From contig DBRB01000003.1 in NCBI GenBank assembly GCA_002305475.1, positions 111,844 to 175,843 on the forward strand: DNA of 64,000 bases. The letters run 5' to 3'. The notes under the pieces are model-generated. The model was not told the DNA's origin. It saw nothing but the letters and a program-made list of their open reading frames with translations, and ran no database searches. The stretch comes from a candidate division WWE3 bacterium UBA1379 (GTDB taxonomy: Bacteria; Patescibacteriota; WWE3; UBA101185; UBA10185). The position numbers and the translations under genes are program-made. Numbering within the stretch: the first letter of the stretch is position 1; each line of letters starts with the position of its first letter. This document shows positions 9,184-60,391 of this stretch, one piece after another.

Positions 9184-10725
9184 ATGGACATCTGTAAGAG
9201 AAATATTTTAATATTTTTTGGTATATCGATTCTTCTTTTCACATTAATGTTTCCCCTTTCTTATTCGATCTCATTTATCCAAAATGATGAATGGGTACAT
9301 TACCTGGTTTTAAATAATTTTCTGGGTGGAAATTTTTCCCTGCATCCCAGAATAGGTTCAACATTTTATACACAGGGTATCCTGGCATATTTGTTTTCTT
9401 TAATCTGGTCCGTGGAAAGAATTCCCATCCTTACCCTATTTATATCTGTATTAAATTTTTATCTTACAGCATTAATTGTTCTCGTAAGGATGAAAAAAAG
9501 CCTTCTTATTTCCATCATAAGCGGATTATTTATTCTACTAAATCCTATCCATGTCTATTCACAATGGGGATTTATGACGGAAAACTACTTCCTGTTTTTC
9601 TTTCTATTATCACTGTATTTCAGTTTCGGATTTTTAAGTAATAATAAGTTTAATAACTTTTTCTTAGCTAATCTTTTTATGATCTTAGGTTTTTTCATCA
9701 AACAGTATGGATTGGTTCTGCCTGTATCATTCTCTTTTGCACTATTTGTTAAAAAACAATATAAACATGCAGTTATTCAATTTGTATTATCCGCAGTTCT
9801 ATTTCTTTTTTACAAAACATTATTCCCCATTACTCCTATAATGGAGAATCAGAGTTTAAGTTTTGATCATATATTTAACCTTAAATATATGGTTTCATAT
9901 TCTGCTGGGATTATGGTTTATTTATGTGCTTTTGTTCTTCCTTTAGTGTTTTCAGCTTCACTTAAAGGTTTATCCAGATCAAAACTGATAATTTCAGGAA
10001 TATTATCCCTCATATTATTATTTCTTCTTTTAAGTTTTTTTGATCGTTTGCAGTTTGAAAAAAGAGAATTTCCTTACTTTGAAAATACATTTGAGAGAAA
10101 TGGCTTTTTTACCATTGATATAACGGGATCCAAATACCCCCTTCCTTATGTGGATAATATTTTTAACTTATGGGAAATTATATCTTTTATTGTATTGGTT
10201 ATCGGGTTACCTCTTATACTTATGCGAAGAAAAGTGAATGATCCGGTATTTGTTCAACTGGGTTCCTGTATTCTTTTGTATTTTTCTTTCCTTTTACTGT
10301 CACCTATGTTATACGATCGATATCTTCTTCCTTTGGTTCCGTTATTTATTCTGATTGTTGTATTACCGCATCAATCGTTTTCAAAATCATCAATAAGTGT
10401 ATTTATGGCTTTTCTCATATTTCTGTTTTTTTTGAATTATCAATTCTCCATGGATTTTTTGGGACGGAATAATTACACCTGGCAGAAATCGGAGTCATTA
10501 TATAATTCAGGAATATCAAAAACTGATATAAATCCCGGTCATTCGTGGCGTATGCTTTCTTTGGACGAAGAACAAGTTGAACGTTGGGATTATATCTTCC
10601 GATATGATCCCATCAGTAAACGTCCGAAAGATATCGGGGATTGGGAAGTAATAGAAACTTATGAAGTGAAGTATCCGTTTAATATGTTTGAAGACCCATA
10701 CATCTATTTGTATAAACGGTTGTAA
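9184..10725 (+). CDS. polytopic membrane protein, putative GT-C-fold glycosyltransferase (paralog of 20877..22412)
   Basis: At least 10 TM helices are predicted. The motif FIQNDEWVHY directly after TM1 is a DE motif in the first outer loop, as in ArnT/PMT. It shares long stretches with 20877..22412 (NPIHVYSQWGFMTENYFLFFFLLSLYF versus NPLNIYSMWGFMSENYFLLFFLISVYF). Confidence 0.5.
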   Translation: MDICKRNILIFFGISILLFTLMFPLSYSISFIQNDEWVHYLVLNNFLGGNFSLHPRIGSTFYTQGILAYLFSLIWSVERIPILTLFISVLNFYLTALIVLVRMKKSLLISIISGLFILLNPIHVYSQWGFMTENYFLFFFLLSLYFSFGFLSNNKFNNFFLANLFMILGFFIKQYGLVLPVSFSFALFVKKQYKHAVIQFVLSAVLFLFYKTLFPITPIMENQSLSFDHIFNLKYMVSYSAGIMVYLCAFVLPLVFSASLKGLSRSKLIISGILSLILLFLLLSFFDRLQFEKREFPYFENTFERNGFFTIDITGSKYPLPYVDNIFNLWEIISFIVLVIGLPLILMRRKVNDPVFVQLGSCILLYFSFLLLSPMLYDRYLLPLVPLFILIVVLPHQSFSKSSISVFMAFLIFLFFLNYQFSMDFLGRNNYTWQKSESLYNSGISKTDINPGHSWRMLSLDEEQVERWDYIFRYDPISKRPKDIGDWEVIETYEVKYPFNMFEDPYIYLYKRL

Positions 10726-10783
10726 TGGGTATTAGTACTATAGTTACATTATCCGTAATTGCATTGTATAATTTGTTAGTTAC

Positions 10784-12118
10784 ATGAAGCTGTTAAAATT
10801 AAGAAACAATCTTATTGTTCAGGCACTTATTGTATTTATAATATTTTTCATCGCATACCTATCTAATCTTCGTTACGATTATTTCAAGAATCTAGAAACA
10901 CATTCTCCCAGGCGACTTATGACTTCCAGAGATTATGTCGGTAATACATTTCTTCCGTATCTGATCATTAAAAAAGGCACGTTTAATTTTGCAGATGATT
11001 TAAAGGTTATAAATAAATACATCCAGGGAAAACCATACTATGTGATAGACGTCAATGGAGGTTATTATGGTAAGTATCCCGTGTTTACAGGAGTATTAGC
11101 TGTACCGATATATCTAATTCCCGTGATCCTAAAAATACCACAACTTGAAACTATGCTGGATGTTTATAAAATTCTAGCGCTTGGTAGAATTGCTGCCTCT
11201 TTTTATACTGCTCTTTCAGTCGCAATCTTATACATGATTATTAGAAAATTATGGGATAAAAATAATTACGGTATATTTCCATTTCTATTTATAACTGCAT
11301 ATGCTCTTGGTACAAATGTATTATCCATAGCTAGTAGAGGGTTATGGCTTCATACCAGTTCGATATTGCTTATCAGTTTAGGGATTTTACTTATGGTATT
11401 AAGCATCAAAAACCCGAAATACATTCCATTTCTAAGTCTAATTGCCGGACTGTCCGTTATCGCCAGAACTACAAATATATTTTTTGCTGCCACGTTGTTT
11501 TTATATGTACTACTTCATTATAGGAAGTATTTGATAACATTCATTCTTTTTACCACTCCTACGGTAATCCTGTATTTTCTGCAAAACAAATTATTATATG
11601 GGGATTTTTTTCTGGAAGGATATCAGCTAAATGACAAAATTGAGTTTGTGACACCGCTTTTTGATGGTTTACATGGTCTGTTGTTCAGTCCCGGAAAAGG
11701 TTTTTTGTTTACGACTCCACTAATGTTTATAGGTATCATCTATATGATATTTTTCTATATATTGAGACTTCAGAAAAACGATATGGATGAAAAGAAGAGG
11801 TTAATGGCATATTTAGGTATTGTGTTTTTATGTGGTTTATTATTAAATGCGAAATGGCGGGACTGGCATGGGGCTGACAGATTCGGGCCTGCCTTATTAA
11901 CGGAGTTTTTGCCCATAACCGCGCTATTCAGTTATGATTTATTTGATAAATTTATCAGACGGAATAAAGTTCTTGCCTTATCAATATTCGTGATCATCTC
12001 TCTATATAGTATGTATGCACATGTAAATACAGTTCATTTCCGTAAGTCACGTTGTTCAGCAGATCATGTATGGACTTTTTACTGTCTGACAAAACCAAGT
12101 AAAGAATTGTTATATTAA
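10784..12118 (+). CDS. polytopic membrane protein, possibly GT-C-like
   Basis: The 444-aa protein has more than 10 TM helices and is co-directional and adjacent to GT-C genes. No clear DE motif was found. Confidence 0.4.
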   Translation: MKLLKLRNNLIVQALIVFIIFFIAYLSNLRYDYFKNLETHSPRRLMTSRDYVGNTFLPYLIIKKGTFNFADDLKVINKYIQGKPYYVIDVNGGYYGKYPVFTGVLAVPIYLIPVILKIPQLETMLDVYKILALGRIAASFYTALSVAILYMIIRKLWDKNNYGIFPFLFITAYALGTNVLSIASRGLWLHTSSILLISLGILLMVLSIKNPKYIPFLSLIAGLSVIARTTNIFFAATLFLYVLLHYRKYLITFILFTTPTVILYFLQNKLLYGDFFLEGYQLNDKIEFVTPLFDGLHGLLFSPGKGFLFTTPLMFIGIIYMIFFYILRLQKNDMDEKKRLMAYLGIVFLCGLLLNAKWRDWHGADRFGPALLTEFLPITALFSYDLFDKFIRRNKVLALSIFVIISLYSMYAHVNTVHFRKSRCSADHVWTFYCLTKPSKELLY

Positions 12119-12122
12119 TATT

Positions 12123-13580
12123 ATGAGTATTATGGGAATTAAGAATTCTAAAATTGAAATAGTATTTTTTATTCTACTAGCAGTAATATCTGCGATTCCC
12201 CGGTTTACACAGCTAGGATATTCTCATTTCTATGGTGATGAAACAAAAGCCATGTATGTGAAGAAAAACTTCTCGGCAACAGAGTTTTTTTTCAATCAGA
12301 GAAAGGGTCCGATGCAGGGATTGATCAGCTGGTTAACGGAAAAAGTATCAGGAGGTTTTAGTGAAAGAGATATGAGAATACCTTTTGCTATCAGCGGATT
12401 TCTCTCTGTAATTTTATTCTACTTTATTGTTCGTGCAGCAATAAATTGGCAAACCGCAGCTGTGAGTTCATTCCTGTTTTCTTTAAACGGGTTTTATTTA
12501 GCATTTAGTAGGACAGTGCAGTATCAAAGTTTACTCTTATTCTTCGGATTGTTCTCCATACTACTATGTGTACTCATATCAAAAACTGCTAATCAGCGAT
12601 TAAAAATTCATTTGTTGATAGGTGCTGGTTTATTTATGGGTTTGAGCTTTTTAACTCATTATGATGCTGTATTCTTTATGGTTCCCTCAGTACTGCTTCT
12701 ATGGAGTGGCGGTAATAGGATCCGAAATATATTTATTTATGGTGCTACTACTGCAATTATGGCTTCACTTTTTTATGTTCCATATATTTTCAAAGGGTTT
12801 TTCTACTTCAACACCAGCATCTATATGATAAACCGGTTTGCAGGTATCGACTCCCTGCCCAATAACAGTCTTTTTACCTATAATGTATACAATCCTTTTT
12901 ATATAACTTTTGCATTTGTTGTATTTATCATCATGGCACTTCTCAGACTGCATAAGAATTATATTGTCAGAATTACACTTGTCTGGTTTTTAGTTCCATT
13001 TGTGGCATTTGAAGTGGTGTTTTCCAACCCCGGTACGCATATTCATAATTATGTTATTCCGCTGTTTATATTTGCTGGATATGGAGTGTATCTTGTGTAC
13101 TGCTATTTGAAAAACAAAATAGTGAGGTCGGTATTTTCCTTTGTTGTAGTTGCTGCTTTAGCACTGATAACTACCATAGGTTATTCATTGTATATTCCCG
13201 CATTTCACACCGGTTATCCCTGGAAACAGTCAAAGTTTCTGACGATGGATATTCCTGCCGTAGATAGAAATACATTTCAATTATTTATATATGGATTCCC
13301 ATATTACAGAGGATGGGATCAGGTTAGAAATTTTGTATTTAACCAAAAAGCAGAGTTAGCGAGAAACTTTTCCACTAATGATAATGTGACGGTGGCTGAA
13401 TACTATCTATCTCCACTGCTGGCATATCATGCTAAACCGCAGTTCTATATCTATGTAGTGGACGGTATGCTTGCAAAACCAAAACTACCTGAAACCGAAG
13501 ATATATTTACGTACTTTTTAATGAAAGAAATTATGGTAGACGATGAAGTGACCGCCCAGATCTATAGAAGAATCATTTAG
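12123..13580 (+). CDS. GT-C glycosyltransferase, ArnT/PMT_2-like (GT39/GT83-type); paralog of 15823..17310
   Basis: The motif YGDETKAMYV...NQRKGPMQGLISW...RIPFAISGFLSVILFYFIVR matches the ArnT/PMT_2 pattern (DEa.Y...KPPL.YWl...RLPSAL.G.L.VLL.Y). Its paralog carries KDEH...SQRKGPMQVFVSY. Confidence 0.6.
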   Translation: MSIMGIKNSKIEIVFFILLAVISAIPRFTQLGYSHFYGDETKAMYVKKNFSATEFFFNQRKGPMQGLISWLTEKVSGGFSERDMRIPFAISGFLSVILFYFIVRAAINWQTAAVSSFLFSLNGFYLAFSRTVQYQSLLLFFGLFSILLCVLISKTANQRLKIHLLIGAGLFMGLSFLTHYDAVFFMVPSVLLLWSGGNRIRNIFIYGATTAIMASLFYVPYIFKGFFYFNTSIYMINRFAGIDSLPNNSLFTYNVYNPFYITFAFVVFIIMALLRLHKNYIVRITLVWFLVPFVAFEVVFSNPGTHIHNYVIPLFIFAGYGVYLVYCYLKNKIVRSVFSFVVVAALALITTIGYSLYIPAFHTGYPWKQSKFLTMDIPAVDRNTFQLFIYGFPYYRGWDQVRNFVFNQKAELARNFSTNDNVTVAEYYLSPLLAYHAKPQFYIYVVDGMLAKPKLPETEDIFTYFLMKEIMVDDEVTAQIYRRII

Positions 13581-15108
13581 TCAGAGTACCGATATATAAT
13601 AGTGGTGCATTTTCTCTTTTAATCTCCCCAAGAATATTTAATTTCATATCCCTTTGTTTTGTCCTTTCGTAATCACATAGAATCAGATCAGCATCCCTTG
13701 ATTCATTCACCATCTCAAAACTTCCCTTTCCAAAGTACCATACAGAATTTGATACATTACAAGGGTATACTTTTAAAACTTTTGGAAATTCTTTGCGGTG
13801 ATCAATAACCCACTGCGTTCCCTCTTTATACGAGGCACCCCAGTAGTCGGTTTCGTATGCATCATAAGTGTTTTTAAGTCCTCCTGTTAATTCATTGAAA
13901 TATATGTATTCAAAAGGGTGCAGATGAATCATCCTGATAAGAGTGAATAGCAGATAAATGGTGAAGATGGATACTACTGTAATAAATAATTTACGATTGT
14001 TTGTTGAATATAAGTCATTAAGAAATATTACGGCTAACATGATAAAAATGGGAACTAAAAAGAGAAAATGACGGATACCGTTATATATTATCGGATTGAT
14101 GGAAAAATAAACAGTGAAATTAATCAATACAGAAATAAGTAGTAAAAAATATATGGGTATTTTTATAAACCTCTTAACATAGATCACAGACAGTATTAAA
14201 GGTATTAATGTGTGTAGTGGTGTGGTGATAAGAAACCAAATAGGAAGATAAATGATCGGATGATTATATTTATCCAACATACTTCCCATGAATAGAATTT
14301 CATGATTCCATAGATCAAATGTTGAGGATACTGCGATAAGTCGGATGAAATTTCTTACCGGAGATTCCCACAAACTGGGAAGAAATCCCACCATAACTAT
14401 GATTGATCCGATTCCTACAAAGATAGTGCTATATGTGGTTTTCATCAGGGATTTTTTAATATTATCCAAAGTTAAACTGTCTTTTAATCCCATCTTAAGG
14501 TTAAAGACCGCATATATAATTAAGAGTGTAAGTCCTAATATCCGGGTGCTTTGCGTTATTCCTATTAATACTGCTAAGCTTAAATATTCAATGATGGGTT
14601 TATTCTTAGTTGTTCCAAAGTAATATATTGCAAAAAGACTGAGAGTATACATAATGGCAAAAGGTATATCTTTAGGGTTACCCGGAAGATCACCTGTAAA
14701 TCTAGGGGTGAGAAATAAAAGTAGTACTGCGGATATAGCAGCAAATTTACTTTTAAGAGCCTTATATATAAAAAGATAGATTAATATGAAAGCTGCAGAT
14801 CCTAATATCAGATTGATCAGGTGATTCCATTCATAATAGTTTTTGGTATTGATTAATATATGTATCAGAAGATGAGCGCGTGAATAAGGAGCTTCAAGAG
14901 GATTATAATTCCATCCCTTAGAATAAAGATAATCACGTGATGCATTATCAAATAACATCTGTTTAAGTAGTCTGGTTGAAATATATTCTGTATCTTCATC
15001 CGCTGTTATTCCAAAGTCCTTATAGAATAGAAATGATAAAACCAGATAAAAAACTAAGAATATAAAAATCGGGTAATGTTTTCTAATAATATTTATAATC
15101 ACCGTCAC
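13573..15108 (-). CDS. GT-C-like membrane glycosyltransferase; paralog of 23870..25426
   Basis: The motif ITADEDTEYIS follows TM1. The protein has more than 10 TMs, and its architecture matches 23870..25426 (YADEPEIAELA). Confidence 0.5.
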   Translation of the reverse strand: MTVIINIIRKHYPIFIFLVFYLVLSFLFYKDFGITADEDTEYISTRLLKQMLFDNASRDYLYSKGWNYNPLEAPYSRAHLLIHILINTKNYYEWNHLINLILGSAAFILIYLFIYKALKSKFAAISAVLLLFLTPRFTGDLPGNPKDIPFAIMYTLSLFAIYYFGTTKNKPIIEYLSLAVLIGITQSTRILGLTLLIIYAVFNLKMGLKDSLTLDNIKKSLMKTTYSTIFVGIGSIIVMVGFLPSLWESPVRNFIRLIAVSSTFDLWNHEILFMGSMLDKYNHPIIYLPIWFLITTPLHTLIPLILSVIYVKRFIKIPIYFLLLISVLINFTVYFSINPIIYNGIRHFLFLVPIFIMLAVIFLNDLYSTNNRKLFITVVSIFTIYLLFTLIRMIHLHPFEYIYFNELTGGLKNTYDAYETDYWGASYKEGTQWVIDHRKEFPKVLKVYPCNVSNSVWYFGKGSFEMVNESRDADLILCDYERTKQRDMKLNILGEIKRENAPLLYIGTLTK

Positions 15109-15197
15109 TATTTTACACTATATAAATCTATCCTTTAAGCAATAAATCTCCAATGCAAATACTTGCATATAAAATATATACCCTCTATGATTAAGCT

Positions 15198-15815
15198 ATG
15201 GGTGATAAGATTACCCGTCATTACCAGCCCAGAGGTAGTAAGGATAAACTGATAACCTCTAAAGAGAAAACCAGCGGAGCTGCAGCGGTTATTTCAAAAT
15301 TTCTCAGCACCAGTGAATCAGATGATCCAGAGACCATAATCGATATTAAAATAACCAATCCCCTAAAAAGAATCTATGAGTTAATACAGGAAATTAAAAA
15401 GCATCAGACTACTACCTTTAATCTGAAGTTTACTATTCCTCTTATTGCTTTACCTATATTTCTATTTGCGGCATTTAAAATTGGGCAAGGTCAGGGTGCC
15501 TGCCGGCAGTTTTATAAGTCAAAAACTGGGTTAGTAAGGGTGCTGAGTATTGATGTTCCGCAGGAATCTAAGGATAGAATTACTTTCTTATCATCTCTAC
15601 TATCATTCATTCCCTCTTTTGAACCGACAACATATTATATTGAGGAAAGCAGAACAATCTTAATTGACAATAATGGGAATACGACAACGATTTTACATCC
15701 TAAGTATATTAACTTTTCTCTGCTGGATAATAAGAAAGTAATAATTACAGGTGAATACTCTTCCTGTGCAAGTGTATTAAGTGTAGTATCAGAAAAGAAT
15801 GTGATGGAACTTTAA
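15198..15815 (+). CDS. hypothetical protein with one TM
   Basis: The 205-aa ORF has one central hydrophobic helix (IPLIALPIFLFAAF). No motif was recognised. Confidence 0.4.
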   Translation: MGDKITRHYQPRGSKDKLITSKEKTSGAAAVISKFLSTSESDDPETIIDIKITNPLKRIYELIQEIKKHQTTTFNLKFTIPLIALPIFLFAAFKIGQGQGACRQFYKSKTGLVRVLSIDVPQESKDRITFLSSLLSFIPSFEPTTYYIEESRTILIDNNGNTTTILHPKYINFSLLDNKKVIITGEYSSCASVLSVVSEKNVMEL

Positions 15816-15822
15816 GTATGAT

Positions 15823-17310
15823 TTATGGGTTTTCCACCCGATAAATTCTCACAACCGTTTCTCCGTTAATTTCAATCTCTTTTACAGTTCTTTTGTTTTT
15901 TATTTGAGGTGCTTTCCAGTCATTGACAAAACTTAACGGCTGTTTTACAGCTATGTAGTAATAAGCAGGAGTACTTGTCCCATATGAAGCATCCATATAA
16001 AAATTACTGGTGGATGCATCTTCATTGGTAATATATTTTAGATTCTCGTTATTGATCCTGTTTTGTTCATTGACGAATTCATTTATTTGATCCCAATCTC
16101 TACGCAATGGAAAACCGAATAAAGGTAGTACTGGGTAATCCTCATAATTAATTGTTTCATATTTACCCAGTATTTTTTCCTGTCTCCAAGGATACTCTAC
16201 CGTATGATCTACAAAAAGTATGTAGGTCTGATAGTAGAAGAAAGAAAAAAGAGCAAGAAAAGAAAGGATGATAACTCCTCTGATTAATTTCGGAGAATAA
16301 CAAAGTATTCTTTCAATGCCGATAGCACAAACTACCAGTGCCGGTATTACAAAATTATAGATATGGGTTCCCGGTTTAATAACAAAGAAATTGAACACCA
16401 GGTAAGTAAATACTGCCCAGCTTAAAAAGTAATAATTCTTTTTAATAAAGATACCTCCGATTGCAGTTCCTATGATCAGAAACCAGTAGAATACGAAAGG
16501 ATGATACAGTTCAATAAGAGTTCTTATACTATGGTCTTTCTCACCAACTCCAACCCTTCTGAATAAATAGCGTTGATTATCAGAAGATTCTAATTGATAC
16601 AAAATATATGGAATAAGATATGGCAGAAGAAGAAGGCAACCCAGCAGAAAGTTAATTACCAATACTTGTATTTTGTATTTAGTTTCATGTCGTTTATTAA
16701 ACAAGAATTGAGCCAAGATAATAGCTATTGGTAGGACAGCAAATACTGCATCCCAATGGGAAAGAATTGATAAACAGTAAAAAAATGTTCCTAGCAGGGT
16801 TTTAAAGAAAGTCTTTTTCCTGTCTTTTATATCAAGAAGGTCGCTATACAAGTATAGAGACAGAAAAGTAAATATAAGATTCAGATTTTGGTATTGAACT
16901 ATCCTACCAAAAGCTGAGACAAAACCGTTAACCAGATATAGCAAAGCTGAGATAAATCCTATCATGCGATTTTTGGTGAGTTTGGAAATCATTAGATAGA
17001 AAAATACTACTGAAGCAATATTAATTAATGCATATGGGATACGTTCTGCAAGTTCATTATGAAAATCATGGGTAAATAAATATGGTATATAGGATACAAA
17101 GACCTGCATTGGCCCTTTACGCTGTGAGATGAAAAATTGTACAGGTGACACTGTAACTCTGTGATCAAAAAAGGTCCTATGTTCATCCTTAACATAATCT
17201 GAATATCCTAAATTGATGAATCTTAGGGGGAGGGTTAATATTATCAACAATACGATGATAATCCATTCTTTTGTGACTATTCTCATTAAAGCATTAAATG
17301 AGTTTTTCAT
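15823..17310 (-). CDS. GT-C glycosyltransferase, ArnT/PMT_2-like; paralog of 12123..13580
   Basis: The motif GYSDYVKDEHRTFF...SQRKGPMQVFVSYIPY is present. The TM topology matches its paralog. Confidence 0.6.
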   Translation of the reverse strand: MKNSFNALMRIVTKEWIIIVLLIILTLPLRFINLGYSDYVKDEHRTFFDHRVTVSPVQFFISQRKGPMQVFVSYIPYLFTHDFHNELAERIPYALINIASVVFFYLMISKLTKNRMIGFISALLYLVNGFVSAFGRIVQYQNLNLIFTFLSLYLYSDLLDIKDRKKTFFKTLLGTFFYCLSILSHWDAVFAVLPIAIILAQFLFNKRHETKYKIQVLVINFLLGCLLLLPYLIPYILYQLESSDNQRYLFRRVGVGEKDHSIRTLIELYHPFVFYWFLIIGTAIGGIFIKKNYYFLSWAVFTYLVFNFFVIKPGTHIYNFVIPALVVCAIGIERILCYSPKLIRGVIILSFLALFSFFYYQTYILFVDHTVEYPWRQEKILGKYETINYEDYPVLPLFGFPLRRDWDQINEFVNEQNRINNENLKYITNEDASTSNFYMDASYGTSTPAYYYIAVKQPLSFVNDWKAPQIKNKRTVKEIEINGETVVRIYRVENP

Positions 17311-20300: not shown

Positions 20301-20858
20301 CTTCTATTTACGTTCGTATTTCATCAACTATTATCTTTGAAAAATGATCGTTATATCTCCTCACTTGAATTACCTTTGACAATTCTGATAGTGTCATTGT
20401 TTTATTATTTATACACCAGACTGAATAATTATAAATGGGTGGTGCTTATCCTAGTCTTGTCTCTTTTTATCTGGCGTACATTTGATTTGTTACAACTTAA
20501 ACCAGATAAATATAATGAATTACGAAATTACTTATCACAACAGACAAATGATTTTACTGACGGGCAAAGGTCATATATTTACGGCTCAATCAGGAGCGGG
20601 AGATGGACATTCGCAGATCTTCCCGATACAGTAGTCACCAGAAAAGACTTTTTAATAAAATGTGATTTTCCAAACTTCAACTACATAGTTTTTGATCAGG
20701 AAGAGTTGCTTAAATCAGATAAGAATGAATTGATGGATTTTGTTCAATTGAATAAAGTTAGGTTTAATTACACAGAGATTGGAAATTTTGATATTTACGA
20801 AAAGATAGAGGGGGAATCACCGGAAGTTGTAGATAAGGTTTTTTGTAAAGTTATTTAG
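17298..20858 (+). CDS. 1186-aa fusion protein: an N-terminal YfhO-like GT-C module joined to a C-terminal PMT/GT39-like GT-C module
   Basis: The N-terminal half carries FFYPSAYYLYQQLISGKFPFWTERIFLGFPAFAMSEFAYLNPLRII. This resembles the YfhO family pattern as recalled from memory, not checked against a model (lksGelPfWs..lglG......y...sPf). The C-terminal half carries DEVLYLESGREYLSGNFENNLQHPLIGKYIAG, which matches PMT-family DE...HPPLgK. The true start may be the Met at 17328, because 17298 overlaps the divergent neighbour. Confidence 0.6.
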   Translation: MSFSLYTTNNMGDKENRQVPAINIREVVTLIIFSLIFLFVYRFDYFFSGKIVKGGDPEGFFYPSAYYLYQQLISGKFPFWTERIFLGFPAFAMSEFAYLNPLRIIGVLVFGPFAVFKFEHILFYLLGVIGIYGILKKTGVNILGIFVSIITYYFSFFHIYRTIHFNFLLTTYLLPINIFLIWSFITSNRLRYLLINALLVSITIYYGNYNAVALCLIPQILLFAVYITKVKILELVKGLMVMLFFISMFSMPAIMSTYSLYSQSTRGSGNLNFVDGSIAPILSLSVVYPFLLGYGENFIGQTINNNYYEHEIYFYFGIVSVLLAIIGYVFQERNSRVRLFLSLNIAIFFIFGFLEYLPFKTLLNVFPVNLFRYYVRTSFLGLLSVSIFSAIGLHILITNTDFKLTKTRIIRILVLCIIPFYYLLLDLINPGLIYSKQILAFIIRGGALYEKIWFTILVSSIIIFVFFLKQKKFRKIYTGVIIFLVIADLYFFTGIVGNELLIEKYIPDAPELGNTRVLYTNPEIIGNMPLYWNNWSVYGTSTTFESGLQKELYKSHGLKSIRRFDDSFRMDQLPAYSENLTKLGIEKVIVDDNTVLDLNNENNVFDKSIYGLTGNVIEAEEGHIKYEIDSDKRQEITTKIKNFTGWRVFINNIERKVTSTKDDLFIKFYLDMGKNIVEMQYFPLPLYRGLLISFCLLLVYLYFRLVRLDKIKKFILFISIVLSLAVFLYKSDYKSVFTDEVLYLESGREYLSGNFENNLQHPLIGKYIAGISDFTRSRDLSILRLPFVLLSFGTAIVTFMIISPVYGFYFGILGMLLYTTMPFTYISGRMILFESPMHFFWSLFHLYFLKYLKNRNLKTALVAGFFIGLSMGTKYTSIILYPFSLLIVLMVCGKKINIRQLLTMYISSAFVFGITWLHMVIKLGMPSLIIAAKEAKNIFFGRNEEGKIHVVNGKLYEKSPFWFYFYYIYHQYNPVQMIVSGLSVLAALFRRKYFENYWLIFLLFTFVFHQLLSLKNDRYISSLELPLTILIVSLFYYLYTRLNNYKWVVLILVLSLFIWRTFDLLQLKPDKYNELRNYLSQQTNDFTDGQRSYIYGSIRSGRWTFADLPDTVVTRKDFLIKCDFPNFNYIVFDQEELLKSDKNELMDFVQLNKVRFNYTEIGNFDIYEKIEGESPEVVDKVFCKVI

Positions 20859-20876
20859 GACTGCTAGAATTTTTCT

Positions 20877-22412
20877 ATGCTTCATAAAAGCGAAAATAAA
20901 CTATTCATTACCAGCGTTATATTATTTATCTTGTTATTACCCTTGTCATTATCTATTGATTTTATGCAGAATGATGACTGGGTTTATTATCGGATGGTAC
21001 AAAATTTTCTAAATGGTGATTTTATACTTGATCCAATATCAGCACCCACATTTTATTTACAGGGTATATTAGCAGCGTTATTTGCATTGTTATTCGGAAT
21101 AACAAAACTACCTGTTCTCACTTTGCTTATATCAGTAATTTCTTTTTATGTATTAGGTATAATTTTAATAAAGAGATTAAATCGAAAATTCTCGGATTCT
21201 CTACTTCTCTCTCTGCTTTTTTTCTTCAATCCGTTAAATATATATTCAATGTGGGGGTTTATGTCAGAGAATTACTTTTTATTATTTTTTCTGATTTCTG
21301 TTTATTTTATCTTGGGTTATGAACAGACAGGACACAAAAAGGATTTTATATTAGCTAATATCTTTATTATCCTGGGATTTTTTATCAGGCAGGTCTCATT
21401 TGTATTATCACTTACCTGGGCTGTTTATTTAGTTTTAAAAAAGCAATACAAAACAGCAATAATTCAATTTGGAATATTTGTCGGCCACTATATTTTTTAT
21501 CTTTACTTATTTCCCAAAACAGCGGAAATGTATGAAAAACCTCTGCAGTTTAAACATATATTAGAGCTTAATTATTCGTATTCATTAATTTATTCGATGT
21601 ATATGTATATATGTGCTTTACTTCTGCCTGTGGTGTTAATACTTATTTACCGTACCGTAATGAGTGATAAAAAAGTAATCAAAGTAATCATTTTTATCGG
21701 GTTGAGTGTATTTGCATACTACCTACTAAATAAATTCTTTAACCCGTCTCATCTTGCCTGGGGAGAATTTCCATATCTGGAAAATGTATGGGAAAGAAGA
21801 GGTTATTATCCAAGAAGCATAGGGGGAACAAAGTATTATTTTTATGGGATATTTGACCTGTATAGATATTGGGAAATATCTGCAAAAATTACTGTATCAG
21901 GATTAGTAGCTGCGATACTATTTAATTTCAAAAAACTAATCAATTATCCTTTCATTTTTATGATTGGTTACTTTGGTTTGATGATAGTAACCGAAAAAGT
22001 TTACGATAGATATCTGACAGTATTAATACCTATGTTTATTTTATTTGGAATTACAATAATACAAAGGTTAGAACGTATTGATTTACTACTATTATTACCT
22101 TTTATACTGTTCATGATGTTTTATACATATCAGTTTTCAATGGATTATATTTTTTTAAATAAATATATCTGGGATAAAAGCAGAAATATCGTAAACACAG
22201 AAAATATTCTTCCCGAAAAAATTCAGGGTGCAAATGCCTGGAAACTAAATTACAGAAATGAATCCAGAGAATATCTATATGATTTCTCATATGATTCACC
22301 GGATATTAATGAAGGCTATAAAAAGATATATGATTTAAAAGAGATTCATGAGATTGATTATCCATTAAATTTCTTTATTGATTCCAAGGTTTATTTATAT
22401 AGAAAAAAATGA
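20877..22412 (+). CDS. putative GT-C-fold membrane glycosyltransferase; paralog of 9184..10725
   Basis: The motif FMQNDDWVYY follows TM1. The protein is largely collinear with 9184..10725. Confidence 0.5.
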   Translation: MLHKSENKLFITSVILFILLLPLSLSIDFMQNDDWVYYRMVQNFLNGDFILDPISAPTFYLQGILAALFALLFGITKLPVLTLLISVISFYVLGIILIKRLNRKFSDSLLLSLLFFFNPLNIYSMWGFMSENYFLLFFLISVYFILGYEQTGHKKDFILANIFIILGFFIRQVSFVLSLTWAVYLVLKKQYKTAIIQFGIFVGHYIFYLYLFPKTAEMYEKPLQFKHILELNYSYSLIYSMYMYICALLLPVVLILIYRTVMSDKKVIKVIIFIGLSVFAYYLLNKFFNPSHLAWGEFPYLENVWERRGYYPRSIGGTKYYFYGIFDLYRYWEISAKITVSGLVAAILFNFKKLINYPFIFMIGYFGLMIVTEKVYDRYLTVLIPMFILFGITIIQRLERIDLLLLLPFILFMMFYTYQFSMDYIFLNKYIWDKSRNIVNTENILPEKIQGANAWKLNYRNESREYLYDFSYDSPDINEGYKKIYDLKEIHEIDYPLNFFIDSKVYLYRKK

Positions 22413-22454
22413 GGGAGTATAAATCATAGATTCATACCCCCAATTGAATTTTAT

Positions 22455-22760
22455 TTAACTGTGATCATGATGACCATGAAATACGATGGCCTCTAAGGTT
22501 TCATTAGAAGTGAGTTTTCCTCCTGTGGAAATGAAATCCATAAGAGATAAATTTAAATGTTCCTCACAATCAGGAGTGAATCTGAATCTTATATCCTCAC
22601 CGACTTTTTGACCGTTATCATTCACCACTAAAGTGATAATATGCATGTGGTGTGGTTCTTCTTTTAATACCTGGCCAGCTGTGTCAAGTAAATCACTCAT
22701 CTTTTTGTGGGGATCGGGAAATTCTAATTTAAACCTTGGTGATGTAAACCTTATATGCAT
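22455..22760 (-). CDS. hypothetical protein
   Basis: The 101-aa ORF is His-rich at both ends (HHMHI, HGHHDHS). No motif was recognised. Confidence 0.4.
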   Translation of the reverse strand: MHIRFTSPRFKLEFPDPHKKMSDLLDTAGQVLKEEPHHMHIITLVVNDNGQKVGEDIRFRFTPDCEEHLNLSLMDFISTGGKLTSNETLEAIVFHGHHDHS

Positions 22761-23117
22761 GACACATCTTCTCCTTAATGCTGATTTGTATTATATTGTC
22801 TTTTCCTGAGAGATTAACCACTTAATATGGTTTATTAAAGTGTATGAGGGAATAGAATTAGAATCCACTAAAATTCATAGGAATACTGATGCTAAAATGT
22901 CCAATCATATATAAATCTATATATTTCAATGATAGAAGCTCGTATCCGATAATGACGAAAATGATAATCTATTTATAATGGTAAATGTACCTGAAGGAAA
23001 TTCCATAATTGGTATGAAATTTATACCTCTGATAATATAATACTCACTGTAAATCAGTGCGGTAATGACTGGAATGACTTCTATCTATCTTTATGTATTT
23101 GTGAGAAAGCACACAAA

Positions 23118-23864
23118 ATGAATATTAACGAATATAAAATAATGGCAGATCTCGAGAAGGAATATTGGTGGCATAAAGGAAAAGTACATCTGATTGAAGC
23201 AATGATAAAAAAGTATTTCGGATCAAATCGGGAAAATCCTATAGAAATAATGGAAATAGGATGTGGTACCGGCGGTGTAACATCAATCCTGCTTAATTAT
23301 GGCAATGTGACAGCCATTGATATATCAGAGGAAGCAGTAACTCTTAATAAAGAGTCAGGGGTTAAAAATGCTTTTTGCGGTGATGTTAATGATATGGATT
23401 TATCACCTTATGAGAAGAAATTTGATTTGATTCTAGCATTAGATGTATTGGAACATATACAGGATGATATAGAAGCCATGAGAAGAGTTCATTATATGCT
23501 TAAGGATAACGGAATGTTTTTCATTAATGTTCCGGCTCATAAATTTTTGTGGAGTGAGCATGATGAAGCTTTGCATCATAAACGCAGATATCATTCATTC
23601 GAAATGATAAGTAAATTGAAGGATACATCTTTCACCATCTTAAAGAAATCATACTTTGTAACTTTTACCTCTCCGATAATAATTCTTTATAGAATATGGG
23701 GTAATTTATTCGGGAAATCTGCCTATCCAAAAACATCATATGTAATGCTGCCAGAAATTATTAACAATTTTTTTATTAACATTTTGAAGTTGGAAGTAAA
23801 GATGGTTGAAAAATTTAATCTGCCCTTTGGTGTAACGCTTACCGTTGTTGCTCGAAAAAAATAA
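23118..23864 (+). CDS. class I SAM-dependent methyltransferase
   Basis: Motif I IMEIGCGTGG is present, as is the post-I acidic residue (AIDISEE) and motif II LILALDVLEH. Confidence 0.8.
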   Translation: MNINEYKIMADLEKEYWWHKGKVHLIEAMIKKYFGSNRENPIEIMEIGCGTGGVTSILLNYGNVTAIDISEEAVTLNKESGVKNAFCGDVNDMDLSPYEKKFDLILALDVLEHIQDDIEAMRRVHYMLKDNGMFFINVPAHKFLWSEHDEALHHKRRYHSFEMISKLKDTSFTILKKSYFVTFTSPIIILYRIWGNLFGKSAYPKTSYVMLPEIINNFFINILKLEVKMVEKFNLPFGVTLTVVARKK

Positions 23865-23869
23865 TATCA

Positions 23870-25426
23870 CTATTTTTTCTTATATATGGTTACATCCGAC
23901 AACGGGATTAGATTAGGCTTTGGAAGTTCAAATACTTTTTCTAACTGATACTCACCTGAATAAACCACAGTATATTCGAACTCATCCCATCTACTGACAT
24001 AAAACGGGTATGCTTTACGAACTTCTTTTCTCTTAAAGTTTTCCATCGGTCTGGATGACAGAATTATATAATCATAACCGATGGGATATTCCGGCATGAA
24101 AAATTGAGCGGACTCGGAAGTATATACCTGATATCGGATAACTCTTGCACCGGGTAGTTTATTCATCGGATCCAGCCCTTCTTCTGTATAGATCAGTTTA
24201 TTTGCAGAAGTCGGTACATTATCCCTCATCCAAAGATATGCTTCCGATTTTGGTGTGTGTCTTTGAAATTGAAAAAGAAGCAATGTTGGGAAGTAAAGAT
24301 AAGTAATCAAAGTCATTATTCCTCCCGTAATAGCTGCAGCTTTTAAATATCCGTTATTTTCTTTTAGTAAATCCCAGATTCTGATAAATCCATAAGAAGC
24401 ATACACCATTACAATTGGAATAATCGGTAGTAGCCAACGGTCTACTCTTCTGGACTGTATGGAGTAAAACAGAAGATAGAAAATTATGTGCCCTATTAAA
24501 AAGATGTGAATGGGAAATATTTCATTATTCTTTTCCTCTTTTATTTTGATGTAAGTTCCGTAAATAGATGAAATCAAAATAGGTATGGTAGATATAAATC
24601 CAAGGGCAAAAATATATTTGAATGGGTTTGAATCTACCGAATCAAAAACCATACCCGCTTCTTTAAAAAGCATCTCATAAATTCTAAAAACAAAATTATT
24701 GGCAAATATAAGGGCAAACGGATTGGTGATAACAAAAACTCCGTATATGAGAAAAAGAAAACCAAACATACCCCTGGGATCTTTTCTTTTTACATAGAGA
24801 TAAATGTATAAAGGTAATGTTAGTAAAGCCGTAATTTTTGTACCAACAGCCAGTCCGACAAGAAGACCATTAAACCAGGTATATCTAGATTTTTGAGGAT
24901 TTTCATAGTACAAGAGTGCAGAAACAAATGAGAGTGATAATAAAATAGTAAGTATTATATCTGCATTAATATAGTGAGCATGCACGATTAGTTTCCAGTT
25001 AAGAGTAGTAAGAATGAAAGATATAAAGGCAACCTTTTTATTTTTAGTGAGTATCCATGCTATAAGAGATGTAACAGGCATTATTGATAGTGAAAGAATT
25101 GAATTAATTACACGCATAAAGACATAAAGCGTGGTTTTATCAAACGATATATTAAAAAGATTCAAACCTTTACTAAAAAGCATTACTGTAATGGTGAAAA
25201 AGTATGAGGGAAAAGAACCGTATACATAAGAGATGGGTATCAGTTTGTAGTAGTCCTTTTTTTCAACAATACTTCTGATTTCATAAGTATATTTTATGGC
25301 CAGTTCTGCAATTTCCGGTTCATCAGCATAAAAACTATGAGGAAGACCAAATTCTATATGCCACAACCTAAAAAATATTCCGAGGAGAGATATTAATAAT
25401 ATGATTAAGAGGATGCTTTTCCTCAT
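23870..25426 (-). CDS. GT-C-like membrane glycosyltransferase; paralog of 13573..15108
   Basis: The motif FYADEPEIAELAIKY follows TM1. The 518-aa protein has more than 10 TMs. Confidence 0.5.
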   Translation of the reverse strand: MRKSILLIILLISLLGIFFRLWHIEFGLPHSFYADEPEIAELAIKYTYEIRSIVEKKDYYKLIPISYVYGSFPSYFFTITVMLFSKGLNLFNISFDKTTLYVFMRVINSILSLSIMPVTSLIAWILTKNKKVAFISFILTTLNWKLIVHAHYINADIILTILLSLSFVSALLYYENPQKSRYTWFNGLLVGLAVGTKITALLTLPLYIYLYVKRKDPRGMFGFLFLIYGVFVITNPFALIFANNFVFRIYEMLFKEAGMVFDSVDSNPFKYIFALGFISTIPILISSIYGTYIKIKEEKNNEIFPIHIFLIGHIIFYLLFYSIQSRRVDRWLLPIIPIVMVYASYGFIRIWDLLKENNGYLKAAAITGGIMTLITYLYFPTLLLFQFQRHTPKSEAYLWMRDNVPTSANKLIYTEEGLDPMNKLPGARVIRYQVYTSESAQFFMPEYPIGYDYIILSSRPMENFKRKEVRKAYPFYVSRWDEFEYTVVYSGEYQLEKVFELPKPNLIPLSDVTIYKKK

Positions 25427-25513
25427 AGAGATATTATAACCTTAATTTTGAAAAACTATTTAATAGAAAAAATAAATCCCCGCCTGATATTACATTGGCG
25501 GGGTTAATAATTT

Positions 25514-25935
25514 TTAAGGATCTGAAATTATCGTTACAATAACACACTGGACATATTTACTTTCTTTTAAGTTGGATCGTTTATGAACACCAGGTATCTG
25601 GTTTTGTTTGAGATCCTTTCCATCTACGCCAAAGCATTTTCTAGTTCTCATAATTCTGACGCAATATCCACTCGTATTGTTTGTACATACTATAGCCTCG
25701 GTGTTGATCCAAACAGTACCTTCTATTCCAAATCTTAATGCATCAGGTTGTACATACGCGACTTCATTTATTTTTAATTGACTCAAATTAAAATATTCAA
25801 TTTTTGCTGTACTTCTCCTGCCACTATTTAAAGGGATCGGATCTCCGATAAAGTGTTTTTCACAGAGAATACCTGATTTTATATCTATGCCGCAATGAAC
25901 ACACTTGCCATTGTCGAATATTTTTCTCCGTCCAT
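25514..25935 (-). pseudogene. probable frameshifted gene for a zinc-ribbon-containing small protein; the frameshift sits in a T5/A5 homopolymer at 25921..25925
   Basis: An ATG at 25933..25935 (minus strand) has a GAAAGGAG Shine-Dalgarno 6 nt upstream and begins MDGEK. After a -1 shift in the A5 run, the reading frame continues without a stop as IFDNGKCVHCGIDIKSGILCEKHF...RRSTAKIEYFNLSQLKINEVAY... into the annotated 90-aa ORF. That ORF would otherwise need a TTG start. Confidence 0.35.
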
Positions 25936-25979
25936 GTCTACTCCTTTCATAATTACGATAATTCCACTATTATGATGAT

Positions 25980-27413
25980 ATGACTAGAAGAACACAGATA
26001 GGATTTATTGTGCTGCTTCTTCTCTTTCTAGCTCTTAGAATACCATATTTGGGGTGGGATTTATCAAATTCCGATGCAGCTAGATGGCATCGAAGATCCG
26101 AACGCTTCTTAACAGCAGTCAAGCAAATGTCCTTTGGTGATACATACCAGCATTATCAGCCGGGAGTTACCTTGATGTGGCTGGGTGCGGTAATTAAACA
26201 GGTCACACATACGTATTCATTAACTGAAAATGCTGATTACTATCCAATAATACACGGTTATATAAAGACAGCCTTAGTTATTATTCTCTTTATTATATTA
26301 ATTATTCAATCACTATTAATCCGTAAACTTTTCGGAAATGAGACGTCGTTATTCTATATAGGTCTAATGGCAGTAGAACCGTACTTAATAGGAATAGACC
26401 GGTGGATGCATCTTACTTCATTAGAAACGTATCTGGCTTTCACAGCATTTCTCCTTATTCTGTACTGGAGAAAAAACAGTAAAACATGGTATCTAGTTCT
26501 ATCCTCTGTCTTTTTATCTTTAGCCTTTTTGTCAAAACTGACTTCTCTTTCGGTATTACCTCTCATCTTTCTTGTGATCTATTTTAGGGAAAGAAAAATT
26601 AATGGAAAATTTATACAGCAAGGTCTTTTATTTTTAGCAGGATTTTTTGTGACATCGATATTATTGTTCCCAGCATTATGGGTGCAGCTAATTGAAGTAC
26701 TGATGAAACTGTTTTCTGCAATTTCCGGAGCTGTAGGAGATGATATCAGAGGTCAATATTTCACTGGTTGGTTCTCACTTGTTTATTATGTGGTTATTCT
26801 GGCATTCAAATTATCACCAATTACTTTATCCTTGCTGTTGTTTGCATTGTTAATAAGAAAACATCTTTGGAAAAACTATCAATGGATTTATATCTACTTC
26901 CTATTCTCTCTGCTTGTCCTGACGGTATCAGAGAAAAAAATTGATCGATACAGCATCTTTCTCTTCCCTTCTCTGATTCTGCTTTCTGCAGCAGCTATGT
27001 CACTGCTAAATAAGTATCGATACATATTGTATGCTGGTATCTTTCTTTATACGGTGTGTGTAGTATATTTCTTCTATCCCGTTTATTCGGCATACTACTC
27101 CCCTGCTTTTGGTGGTACACAACAGGCAATAAAAGTTGGAGTATATGAAAATAGCGGAGAATATTTTTCCGATGCTGCTTTCTACTTAAATACTTTAGGA
27201 AGGGACAACTATCTGTATGTTCCGAATAATTATGAGTCTATCTCATATTTCTATAAAGGAAAAATGCAAAGAGAATACAATGATCAGACAACTCATATGG
27301 TAACTTCCCTGGATTTTGACAGACCACTGGCAGAAAACAGACTATGCCCACAACTTGTCAAGTCTTTTGGGTCAAGGGATATGGAAGTTGTGTTTGTCTG
27401 GAAGTGTCGGTAA
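25980..27413 (+). CDS. GT-C glycosyltransferase, ArnT/PMT_2-like
   Basis: The motif GWDLSNSDAARWHRRSERFLTAV...QHYQPGVTLMWLGA aligns with the ArnT DEARY...KPPLLYWL pattern. The 477-aa protein has more than 10 TMs. Confidence 0.55.
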   Translation: MTRRTQIGFIVLLLLFLALRIPYLGWDLSNSDAARWHRRSERFLTAVKQMSFGDTYQHYQPGVTLMWLGAVIKQVTHTYSLTENADYYPIIHGYIKTALVIILFIILIIQSLLIRKLFGNETSLFYIGLMAVEPYLIGIDRWMHLTSLETYLAFTAFLLILYWRKNSKTWYLVLSSVFLSLAFLSKLTSLSVLPLIFLVIYFRERKINGKFIQQGLLFLAGFFVTSILLFPALWVQLIEVLMKLFSAISGAVGDDIRGQYFTGWFSLVYYVVILAFKLSPITLSLLLFALLIRKHLWKNYQWIYIYFLFSLLVLTVSEKKIDRYSIFLFPSLILLSAAAMSLLNKYRYILYAGIFLYTVCVVYFFYPVYSAYYSPAFGGTQQAIKVGVYENSGEYFSDAAFYLNTLGRDNYLYVPNNYESISYFYKGKMQREYNDQTTHMVTSLDFDRPLAENRLCPQLVKSFGSRDMEVVFVWKCR

Positions 27414-30309: not shown

Positions 30310-30732
30310 ATGAATTGGGTATTTTATGCTCTTTTATCTGCGCTTTTTGCCGCATTAACTGCTATTCTTGCCAAGGTAGGCGTAAAAGATGTCAATTCCA
30401 ATCTGGCTACAGCTATTAGGACTATTGTTATTCTTATATTTGCCTGGGCGATTGTATTTTTTCAGCAGACTCATAAACAACTTCCAAATATAAATAAAAC
30501 ATCCCTTGCTTTTTTGCTGGCATCCGGTCTAACTACAGCTGCATCCTGGATATTTTACTTTAGAGCGTTGCAGCTTGGTGATGCATCAAAGGTTGCCCCT
30601 GTGGATAAAATGAGTTTAATATTTACCATACTATTAGCATTAGTATTTCTTCATGAAAAATTAACTCTTAGTGTATTTATCGGTGCCGTACTCATGACCG
30701 CAGGAGTTTTAGTTATTACGATTATTAAATAA
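30310..30732 (+). CDS. EamA-like (DMT superfamily) small transporter
   Basis: The 140-aa protein has 4 TM helices and an EamA-type motif, ILAKVGVKDVNSNLATAIRT. Confidence 0.65.
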   Translation: MNWVFYALLSALFAALTAILAKVGVKDVNSNLATAIRTIVILIFAWAIVFFQQTHKQLPNINKTSLAFLLASGLTTAASWIFYFRALQLGDASKVAPVDKMSLIFTILLALVFLHEKLTLSVFIGAVLMTAGVLVITIIK

Positions 30733-36564: not shown

Positions 36565-36567
36565 TAT

Positions 36568-38148: not shown

Positions 38149-38154
38149 GAATAT

Positions 38155-45066: not shown

Positions 45067-45074
45067 CTTATTTT

Positions 45075-47889: not shown

Positions 47890-47893
47890 ATGT

Positions 47894-48568: not shown

Positions 48569-48661
48569 AGTATTTGCAGCCATCTATATATATCTCATAA
48601 AATCACCAAAATGTGAAGTGGTATTGTAGAATGATCGGATAATTTCAGGTATACTGATTAT

Positions 48662-60301: not shown

Positions 60302-60391
60302 TCCCAGTTTATTTAAAAGACTAAGTATGATCATAACTAAATGAAACAGTATGGATATACTTCCTAACTGGCTGTTTAACATTGCCATATT

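Follow-up and report, generated by a model that had tools for sequence, protein, structure and literature searches.

The closest described counterparts of the gene cluster analyzed here are the multi-component transmembrane glycosylation systems of Gram-positive bacteria, which consist of a CsbB/GtlA-type glycosyltransferase of the GT-A fold, a GtrA/GtcA flippase and a membrane glycosyltransferase of the GT-C fold that belongs to the YfhO, GtlB or PMT_2 type (reviewed in PMC8035078). In those systems one to three GT-C genes are found per genome, usually in scattered GT-A/GT-C pairs, whereas the cluster described here packs 10 GT-C modules into 18 kb. It occupies positions 9184-27413 of a 64,000-bp stretch of DNA (hereafter, the window) from the candidate division WWE3 bacterium UBA1379, a member of the Candidate Phyla Radiation (CPR/Patescibacteria; contig DBRB01000003.1, positions 111,844-175,843). 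Genes are named below by the lower coordinate of their open reading frame (ORF) in the window. The cluster resembles the Gram-positive systems in its YfhO, PMT_2 and 'no Pfam' types of GT-C, and in that the family of gene 13573 is paired or fused with an ArnC/GtrB/DPMS-type GT-A in relatives and in other phyla. The host is likewise taken to be a monoderm. Unlike the Gram-positive systems, the window is devoid of a lipid-phosphate sugar synthase and of GtrA, and it contains a double GT-C fusion and an ALG12-like member.

A larger set of GT-Cs, partly clustered, is present in mycobacteria and corynebacteria (EmbA/B/C, AftA-D, PimE and Pmt; embCAB-aftA region), where polyprenyl-phosphate monosaccharides are used to build a complex glycan outside the membrane. 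AftA, AftB, AftD, Emb and PimE were among the structural matches of the window proteins, and the cluster is closer to this envelope set in scale and family diversity. In contrast to the mycobacterial set, it shows no orthology at the sequence level, belongs to a far smaller genome, and lacks the large Emb-type C-terminal carbohydrate-binding domains, the C-terminal tails here being ~30-130 aa long. The ALG enzymes of the endoplasmic reticulum (ER) lumen (ALG3, 9, 12 and 6; GT22, GT57 and GT58) differ from the ALG12-like protein 10784 in that the latter is bacterial and only 8-12% identical to them; unlike the ER-lumen setting, the window has no oligosaccharyltransferase (STT3/PglB) gene. ArnT (GT83), the 4-amino-4-deoxy-L-arabinose transferase of lipid A, shares the fold and the PMT_2 domain. 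However, NCBIfam models of the ArnT type went unmatched in ten of the proteins at E up to 1 and in 36568 and 38155 at E up to 0.001, the window has no ArnC, and to our knowledge CPR bacteria do not possess lipid A. The resemblance to ArnT is one of fold, not of function.

The nearest homologues of the window proteins come from metagenome-assembled genomes (MAGs) labeled 'candidate division WWE3' and 'Patescibacteria group', the G+C content is ~35%, and the window also carries genes of a small-genome bacterium (rpsS4, tRNAs, superoxide dismutase (SOD), thioredoxin reductase, a sortase and a copper-handling block). The locus 9184-27413 was recovered both in an NCBI contig of 187,689 bp and in an independent Logan assembly. 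CPR bacteria, whose genomes are minimal, are thought to spend their lives attached to other cells, and their envelope chemistry has barely been described. We found no treatment of GT-C clusters in CPR bacteria in the literature; a Microgenomates genome paper notes only '29 genes of glycosyl transferases' (PMC7143001).

Identification of the GT-C proteins

A preliminary description of the window, made from its letters alone, had proposed that nine large polytopic proteins encoded within 18 kb are ArnT/PMT-like glycosyltransferases, and that four more GT-C units occur in the window. All of these units proved to be real. The nine ORFs (444-1186 aa) are all polytopic and together make up ~15.4 kb, or 85%, of the 18.2-kb span. 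A simple hydropathy scan gave 9-15 hydrophobic peaks per GT-C protein and 24 in 17298, a double GT-C fusion. Together with genes 36568, 38155 and 62306 outside the cluster, the 64-kb window thus has a total of 12 GT-C genes and 13 modules, and its other ORFs of at least 150 aa yielded no more GT-Cs. The searches described below confirm that all 12 genes and 13 modules encode GT-C-fold glycosyltransferases. The more specific claim of ArnT/PMT/PMT_2 identity held for about half of the modules, as judged by Pfam, the rest being YfhO-like, ALG12-like or members of families without a Pfam model.

Six modules scored over the gathering cut-off of Pfam PMT_2 (PF13231; 26.1 bits) or PMT (PF02366). These are 12123 (12123-13580, plus strand, 485 aa; PMT_2 51.5 bits, PMT 30.3 bits), 15823 (15823-17310, minus strand, 495 aa; PMT_2 29.8 bits), the C-terminal module of fusion 17298 (19383-20858, plus strand; PMT_2 42.2 bits at residues 761-897), 23870 (23870-25426, minus strand, 518 aa), which qualifies via PMT (35.9 bits) and is also over the cut-off for GT87 (26.4 bits), 36568 (36568-38148, plus strand; PMT_2 50.1 bits, PMT also over its cut-off) and 38155 (38155-39672, plus strand; PMT_2 36.1 bits). 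Two further proteins fell just under the PMT_2 cut-off, namely 25980 (25980-27413, plus strand, 477 aa; 25.3 bits) and 20877 (20877-22412, plus strand, 511 aa; 18.7 bits, E 2e-3), the latter of which matched the NCBIfam model of the LA_3751/LA_3752 putative glycosyltransferase at 6e-7. The remaining five (9184, 10784, 13573, 62306 and the N-terminal half of 17298) had no match at E up to 10 in Pfam and up to 1 in NCBIfam.

The Pfam-less families were tied to the PMT_2-type profile (A4) by profile-profile comparison, with probabilities of 82-93%. Protein 9184 (9184-10725, plus strand, 513 aa) is 36% identical to 20877 (blastp 2e-94), and the profile of their family (A5) matched A4 with an hhalign probability of 82% (E 1e-5); the family is related to LA_3751/PMT_2. 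For 62306 (62306-63745, minus strand) the assignment came from its homologues: PMT_2 was matched by 33 of the 41 sampled (best 8.6e-15), although the window copy itself had no direct Pfam match. The N-terminal module of 17298 (17298-19382, plus strand; 1186 aa for the whole fusion) has ~16 hydrophobic peaks and an extracytoplasmic domain of ~180 aa, and the alignment of the module shows a conserved C-terminal domain followed by a transmembrane (TM) segment. Its only database homologue is a standalone protein of 685 aa; among further orthologs, which were recovered from loci of other genomes, three of five matched Pfam YfhO (PF09586; best 1.9e-8), a model that the window copy leaves unmatched. 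Against the PMT_2-type profile the module gave an hhalign probability of 91%. The NCBI gene model of 17298 starts later than the longest ORF (1176 instead of 1186 aa), which would abolish the 13-nt overlap with the divergent gene 15823.

Searches of the PDB by sequence or profile with 10784, 12123 and profiles A1-A4 returned nothing meaningful (for A4, a chance-level match to V-ATPase subunit e at E ~0.5), and a fold search was therefore needed. AlphaFold2 models of 10784 and 13573 are all-helical membrane bundles, ArnT was the top Foldseek match of both, and both matched the GT-C core of solved enzymes. Protein 13573 (13573-15108, minus strand, 511 aa) was modeled with a predicted local distance difference test score of 94; its top 36 PDB matches were all GT-C-fold chains (ArnT 1.5e-6), and hhalign gave 93% against the PMT_2-type profile with the DE motifs aligned. 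The family of 13573 is widespread: a word-indexed search found 706 homologues, almost none with a Pfam domain, at least 581 genome stretches were confirmed, and neither Pfam nor NCBIfam has a model for it. Protein 10784 (10784-12118, plus strand, 444 aa) was assigned by structure prediction and fold search as an ALG12-like GT-C that lacks the large C-terminal domain. Its family is small and restricted to Patescibacteria, likewise with no Pfam or NCBIfam model. The NCBI gene model gives it 399 aa, and homologue alignments favor the 444-aa start.

In 11 of the 12 proteins the first TM helix is followed after 8-20 residues by the expected acidic motif (D[ED], DxE or DxAR), which also comes after the first TM segment of the 17298 C-module (TDE). 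Individual examples are NDE at residues 34-36 of 9184, D39-E40 in 12123 and in 62306, D42-E43 in 15823, D35-E36 in 23870 and DAAR at residue 32 of 25980. Protein 10784, which is the exception, has an invariant D50 and a near-invariant D32 in the family alignment. Conservation was likewise high in the families of 13573 (T35, D37 and E38 invariant), 62306 (E40 invariant, D39 nearly so) and the 17298 N-module (D56 invariant). The KPPL/HPPL- and RLPSAL-like elements said to occur in several of the proteins were less common, but the wording was fair: clear KPPL/HPPL-like motifs are present in four proteins only (12123, 15823, 36568 and 38155), and by reading of the sequences R[LIV]P-type motifs occur in ~5, with RLPFVLL at residue 784 of 17298. 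Assignment to unrelated transporter or permease families, named at the outset as a possible refutation, was rejected, since no transporter family was matched in any search.

Divergence and density of the GT-C genes

The proteins had been called paralogs, which overstates their relatedness. Clear similarity is confined to two pairs, 9184/20877 (36% identity) and 12123/15823 (28%); the BLAST matches of a further three pairs were marginal. The modules fall into at least six deep families: classic PMT_2 (12123, 15823, the 17298 C-module, 36568, 38155 and 62306), PMT/GT87-like (23870 and 25980), LA_3751-like (9184 and 20877), the 13573 family, the ALG12-like 10784 family, and the YfhO-like module that forms the N-terminal half of 17298. 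No DNA-level repeats were found in the window. Recent tandem duplication was rejected, as only two pairs exceed 25% identity and DNA repeats are absent. The cluster is a set of different enzymes and not a recent amplification, and the same two observations speak for distinct functions instead of redundancy.

The density of GT-C genes is exceptional, as the preliminary description had held. For comparison we used 85 loci (1.36 Mb), each picked for already holding one related GT-C. A single GT-C was present in 66 of them and at least four in only 4 (seven in L012, five in L035, and four each in L006 and L017), compared to 12 in the window.

Related clusters in other genomes

A genome scan with the 13573 profile yielded 80 loci; L089, L090, L091, L093, L100 and L101 came from a scan of metagenomes for the YfhO-like module. 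In most of the 80 loci the 13573 homologue is the only GT-C related to the window set. Other Patescibacteria nevertheless have orthologous clusters, with a changed gene order; they were found in L012, L035, L006, L017, L090, L100 and L089, with further combinations in the L089-L101 set. The same orthologous families co-localize in at least six genomes, and orthologs are 31-48% identical across distant genomes. In the most complete example, L012, seven GT-C genes follow one another within 13 kb. They are orthologs of 12123, 15823, 23870, 25980, 13573 (twice) and 20877, and their run is followed by an ortholog of the GT2 gene 27423 (56% identity), which adjoins the cluster in the window. Orthologs of 15823 occur in L006, L012 and L101, of 20877 in L006, L012, L035, L093 and L100 (42-44% identity), and of 23870 in L012, L035 and L090 (46-48%). 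Synteny was not conserved around the first 10784 homologues examined (loci L001-L005).

The fusion of two GT-C modules also recurs. In L012, L035 and L090 the YfhO-like module is fused to an ortholog of 25980 (C-terminal half, 44-46% identity) in a protein of 1185 aa, and in L100 the YfhO-like gene and a downstream 25980 ortholog are adjacent and overlapping. In the window, fusion 17298 bears a different PMT_2-type C-module and 25980 stands alone; the YfhO-like module of at least 13 other loci is a protein of its own, 670-730 aa long. Since YfhO-like and PMT_2-like modules are recurrently fused or adjacent, the two kinds are predicted to work together.

Proposed donor synthesis and cytoplasmic partners

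The preliminary description had also proposed polyprenyl-phosphate sugar donors. This part was supported by genomes other than that of UBA1379, in the fusions and adjacencies of the 13573 family, the synthase itself being missing from the window. In Bacteroidota loci (e.g., L054, L067, L046 and L056) the N-terminal part of the 13573-family protein is a GT2 domain that contains the motif DTQCGFK and whose seven best PDB matches are ArnC, GtrB (sll0501) and DPMS, all of them polyprenyl-phosphate glycosyltransferases. Such GT2-GT-C fusions, ~960-1060 aa long where complete, were seen in the Bacteroidota loci L054, L067, L046, L056, L060, L063 and L083. They look like self-contained pairs of donor synthase and transferase within a Pfam-less family. 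In addition, 15 of 83 loci, L014 and L024 of Roizmanbacteria among them, have an ArnC/GtrB/DPMS-type GT2 within 1.5 kb of the 13573-family gene, and one of 249 aa is located inside the L035 cluster. Fusion and adjacency with a lipid-phosphate sugar synthase are the strongest available evidence that these GT-Cs would use lipid-phosphate monosaccharides; for families other than that of 13573, polyprenyl-phosphate sugars are the presumed donors. A tblastn search of the gap 25426-25980, the position that corresponds to a DPM1-like GT2 in L035, found no trace of a degraded GT2.

The best-conserved partner of the cluster is the GT2 gene 27423 (27423-28331, plus strand, 302 aa; Glycos_transf_2 5e-23), a GT-A-fold protein with no obvious TM segment, copies of which (53-56% identity) lie inside the L012, L035 and L017 clusters. 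Among solved structures the nearest to it are GalT1, chondroitin synthase and 5tze/5tz8, and not GtrB, ArnC or DPMS. The PDB entries 5tze and 5tz8, named only 'Glycosyl transferase' in the search table, we take to be S. aureus TarS. A role as a lipid-phosphate sugar synthase was judged unlikely given that the nearest structures are of other kinds; it is more probable that the acceptor of GT2 27423 is a lipid-linked molecule or a polymer in the cytoplasm. Directly downstream of it is a PGA_cap (CapA-like) gene (28328-29344, minus strand) with a weak NCBIfam match to the lasso-peptide epimerase MslH. The flippase of lipid-linked sugars might, by inference only, be the half-size EamA protein of the drug/metabolite transporter superfamily at 30310-30732 (plus strand, 140 aa, 4 hydrophobic segments; EamA 2.3e-24), although it is a weak candidate.

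The second proposed cytoplasmic partner is a class I S-adenosylmethionine (SAM)-dependent methyltransferase, 23118 (23118-23864, plus strand, 248 aa; Methyltransf_23/11/12 ~1e-17), which had been suggested to methylate the glycan. Its association with GT-C genes is conserved elsewhere. In 9 loci of Bacteroidota and Chloroflexi a homologue is found no more than 1.5 kb from a GT-C gene of the 13573 family, and in L089 a 51%-identical copy is placed between a YfhO-like and a 9184-like gene. Such conserved gene neighborhoods support a real link between methyltransferase and GT-C. Separately, a class I methyltransferase was observed within ~1.3 kb after the GT2-GT-C fusion in L054, L067 and L046. 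In a Chloroflexi MAG (L068, 5198-11392) we noted an ORF of 2064 aa with 24 hydrophobic peaks that contains a 13573-family module and may be a triple or double GT-C fusion.

Gene content of the cluster and the remainder of the window

The nine GT-C ORFs are interleaved only by the methyltransferase, two small ORFs and two non-coding gaps. One of the small ORFs, 15198 (15198-15815, plus strand), encodes a single-TM protein of 205 aa that was also called as a gene in the independent assembly; it had no Pfam or NCBIfam match and no homologue in loci L001-L085. The other, 22455 (22455-22760, minus strand), encodes a His-rich protein of 101 aa within the gap 22412-23118. This gap (~700 bp), which opens with a strong hairpin with a 13-bp stem at 22413-22441, and a second one at 25426-25980 (~550 bp) interrupt a cluster whose genes are otherwise tightly packed. 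Scans for promoters and terminators gave no information; the counts did not exceed those in shuffled sequence. The G+C fraction of the cluster is 0.31-0.33 compared to ~0.36; we do not take this as a sign of horizontal transfer, since such a composition would be expected where codons for Phe, Ile, Leu, Tyr, Lys and Asn are frequent.

The three GT-C genes outside the cluster belong to two other loci. At 33710-39672 (plus strand) four co-directional genes encode a BcsZ-like GH8 protein (Glyco_hydro_8 4.5e-43), a BcsA-like processive GT2 (Cellulose_synt/CelA 4e-88) and the GT-Cs 36568 and 38155. The BcsA-like synthase has 533 aa, so that its PilZ part at the C terminus is apparently absent. A BcsB-like gene was not seen. 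The other locus, at 60392-63745 (minus strand), comprises GT-C 62306, a polysaccharide deacetylase (61444-62337; Polysacc_deac_1) and a processive-type GT2 (60392-61462; Glyco_trans_2_3 and Chitin_synth_2). A GH18 chitinase/EndoS-like gene (59234-60301, plus strand) converges on it. The region 59234-63745 looks like a locus for a poly-N-acetylglucosamine (PNAG)- or chitin-like polymer with a GT-C partner, and these arrangements suggest that some GT-Cs decorate secreted beta-glucan-like or PNAG/chitin-like polymers.

Elsewhere in the window we noted a 404-aa protein (56846-58060, minus strand) with bacterial archaeo-eukaryotic release-factor-like domains (baeRF family 7/3/6), and a copper-handling block at 42712-50714 with a CopA-type P-type ATPase, a fusion of HMA, DsbD_2 and cupredoxin domains, a histidine kinase with a response regulator, and one further cupredoxin protein. 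The genes at 247-1209 and 52931-54067 (both minus strand) encode two paralogous soluble glucose/sorbosone dehydrogenases (GSDH). Together with SOD, an MsrA-MsrB fusion, thioredoxin reductase and TspO, the GSDH pair makes up an oxidative-stress and periplasmic redox set that is unusually rich for a CPR genome.

Discussion

The interpretation that we favor, with a probability of roughly 0.7, is that the cluster is a conserved Patescibacteria battery of functionally distinct GT-Cs that add polyprenyl-phosphate-borne sugars to one or more cell-surface acceptors. Each GT-C would be embedded in the cytoplasmic membrane, and the loop with its catalytic Asp/Glu would point to the outside. The donor would be a single sugar on a polyprenyl-phosphate carrier, made at the cytoplasmic face and then flipped, and the sugar would be added to a cell-surface acceptor, probably a wall- or membrane-anchored glycopolymer and less likely surface proteins. 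In outline this follows the general scheme for transmembrane glycosylation by multi-component systems (PMC8035078). Because ten modules of at least six deep families are clustered, we take them to represent successive or branch-specific steps on one or a few complex surface glycans. The soluble GT2 27423 would contribute a cytoplasmic glycosylation step, and methyltransferase 23118 would modify the sugar or the lipid-linked intermediate from the cytoplasmic side. The acceptor, the order of the steps and a single shared product are inferred. A more ambitious version, which we offer tentatively, is that of a Patescibacteria-specific 'GT-C assembly line', in which at least 10 modules of at least six families, among them the two families that lack a Pfam or NCBIfam model and the double-GT-C fusion enzyme, would build a complex, partly methylated surface glycan wholly outside the membrane from lipid-phosphate monosaccharides. 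Such an assembly line would take up ~2% of a genome of roughly 1 Mb.

Several observations weigh against the favored interpretation. The system is incomplete as seen here: the window has no ArnC/GtrB/DPM1-type GT2, and neither GtrA nor a Wzx flippase was found among its scanned ORFs. Either a donor synthase and a flippase are encoded elsewhere in the genome, or non-canonical proteins substitute for them. GT2 27423 resembles Leloir-type polymer or lipid-intermediate transferases and not lipid-phosphate sugar synthases. The least well supported GT-C member is 9184, which rests on its paralogy with 20877 and on the profile match of 82%, a value that was only 26% under different hhalign settings. 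Finally, the cluster genes are on both strands in at least seven transcription units and their order is reshuffled among relatives, so that a single pathway is not proven, and the adjacency of three GT-C genes to processive synthase genes suggests several acceptors.

The last points bear on a possible, if doubtful, alternative in which the region is a 'glyco-island' of co-located independent systems, each with its own donor and serving several unrelated acceptors. The multiple strands and transcription units, the reshuffled order and variable content among relatives, and the two separate GT-C loci tied to different processive synthases are all in keeping with such an island, and in Lactococcus and Bacillus several GT-A/GT-C pairs do serve different polymers (PMC8035078). 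It accounts less readily for the co-localization of the same families in at least six genomes, for the retention of the GT2 within the clusters and for the fusion of modules. A different acceptor is envisaged if the GT-Cs act like PMT, TMEM260 or the actinobacterial Pmt in protein O-glycosylation, with the paralogs serving different secreted or surface proteins such as pili, S-layer proteins or sortase substrates. CPR cells depend on surface appendages, the window has a sortase gene, PMT (PF02366) is over its cut-off in 12123, 23870 and 36568, and 23870 has a weak TMEM260-like match. We nevertheless consider this explanation unlikely, as no acceptor protein gene is evident in the cluster, GT-C genes adjoin BcsA-like and PgaC/chitin-synthase-like genes, and six deep families including an ALG12-like one fit glycan elongation and not protein priming alone. 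Moreover, what the characterized PMT_2 and YfhO enzymes of bacteria modify is mostly teichoic acid or wall polysaccharide (PMC8035078).

Some of the members might not be glycosyltransferases at all, but scaffold proteins, proteins for lipid-carrier handling, flippase-associated (Agl23-like) proteins of the GT-C fold, or transporters. Weak NCBIfam matches of 25980 and 36568 to 'flippase activity-associated protein Agl23', and the presence of the non-catalytic GT-C-fold proteins PIG-U and GAB1 among the fold matches, point in this direction. The loop acidic residues are, however, conserved or invariant in every family examined, and with no transporter family matched we regard the proposal as improbable. 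Equally hard to sustain is a variable surface-glycan repertoire for host or phage interaction, with paralogs switched or exchanged in the 'combinatorial' manner of the preliminary description. The high paralog number and the differing cluster content among relatives would suit it, but notable tandem repeats, promoters flanked by long inverted repeats, and recent duplicates are all absent from the window, and ortholog identities of 31-48% across distant genomes fit stable functions. Phase variation or invertible switches were rejected, as only trivial AT-rich repeats were found in the window.

GT-C enzymes and the three-component logic of their systems are already well known. What is new here is the occurrence of 10 modules in 18 kb and their conservation in a CPR lineage, the double-GT-C fusion, the recurrent synthase-GT-C-methyltransferase module, and two families without a Pfam or NCBIfam model (10784 and 13573), of which that of 13573 is pan-bacterial. 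The natural fusions, of lipid-phosphate synthase with GT-C and of GT-C with GT-C, predict functional partnerships, and the GT-C genes beside cellulose-synthase-like and PNAG/chitin-synthase-like genes suggest an extracellular decoration of those polymers. If the genome is similar in size to the 878-kb WWE3 genome, the ~20 kb of GT-C genes would amount to ~2% of it, an investment which implies that the surface glycan is important to this CPR bacterium. Should the assembly line exist as proposed, it would be a bacterial analogue of glycan assembly in the ER lumen or in mycobacteria, and the surface biology of these organisms as epibionts could depend centrally on it.

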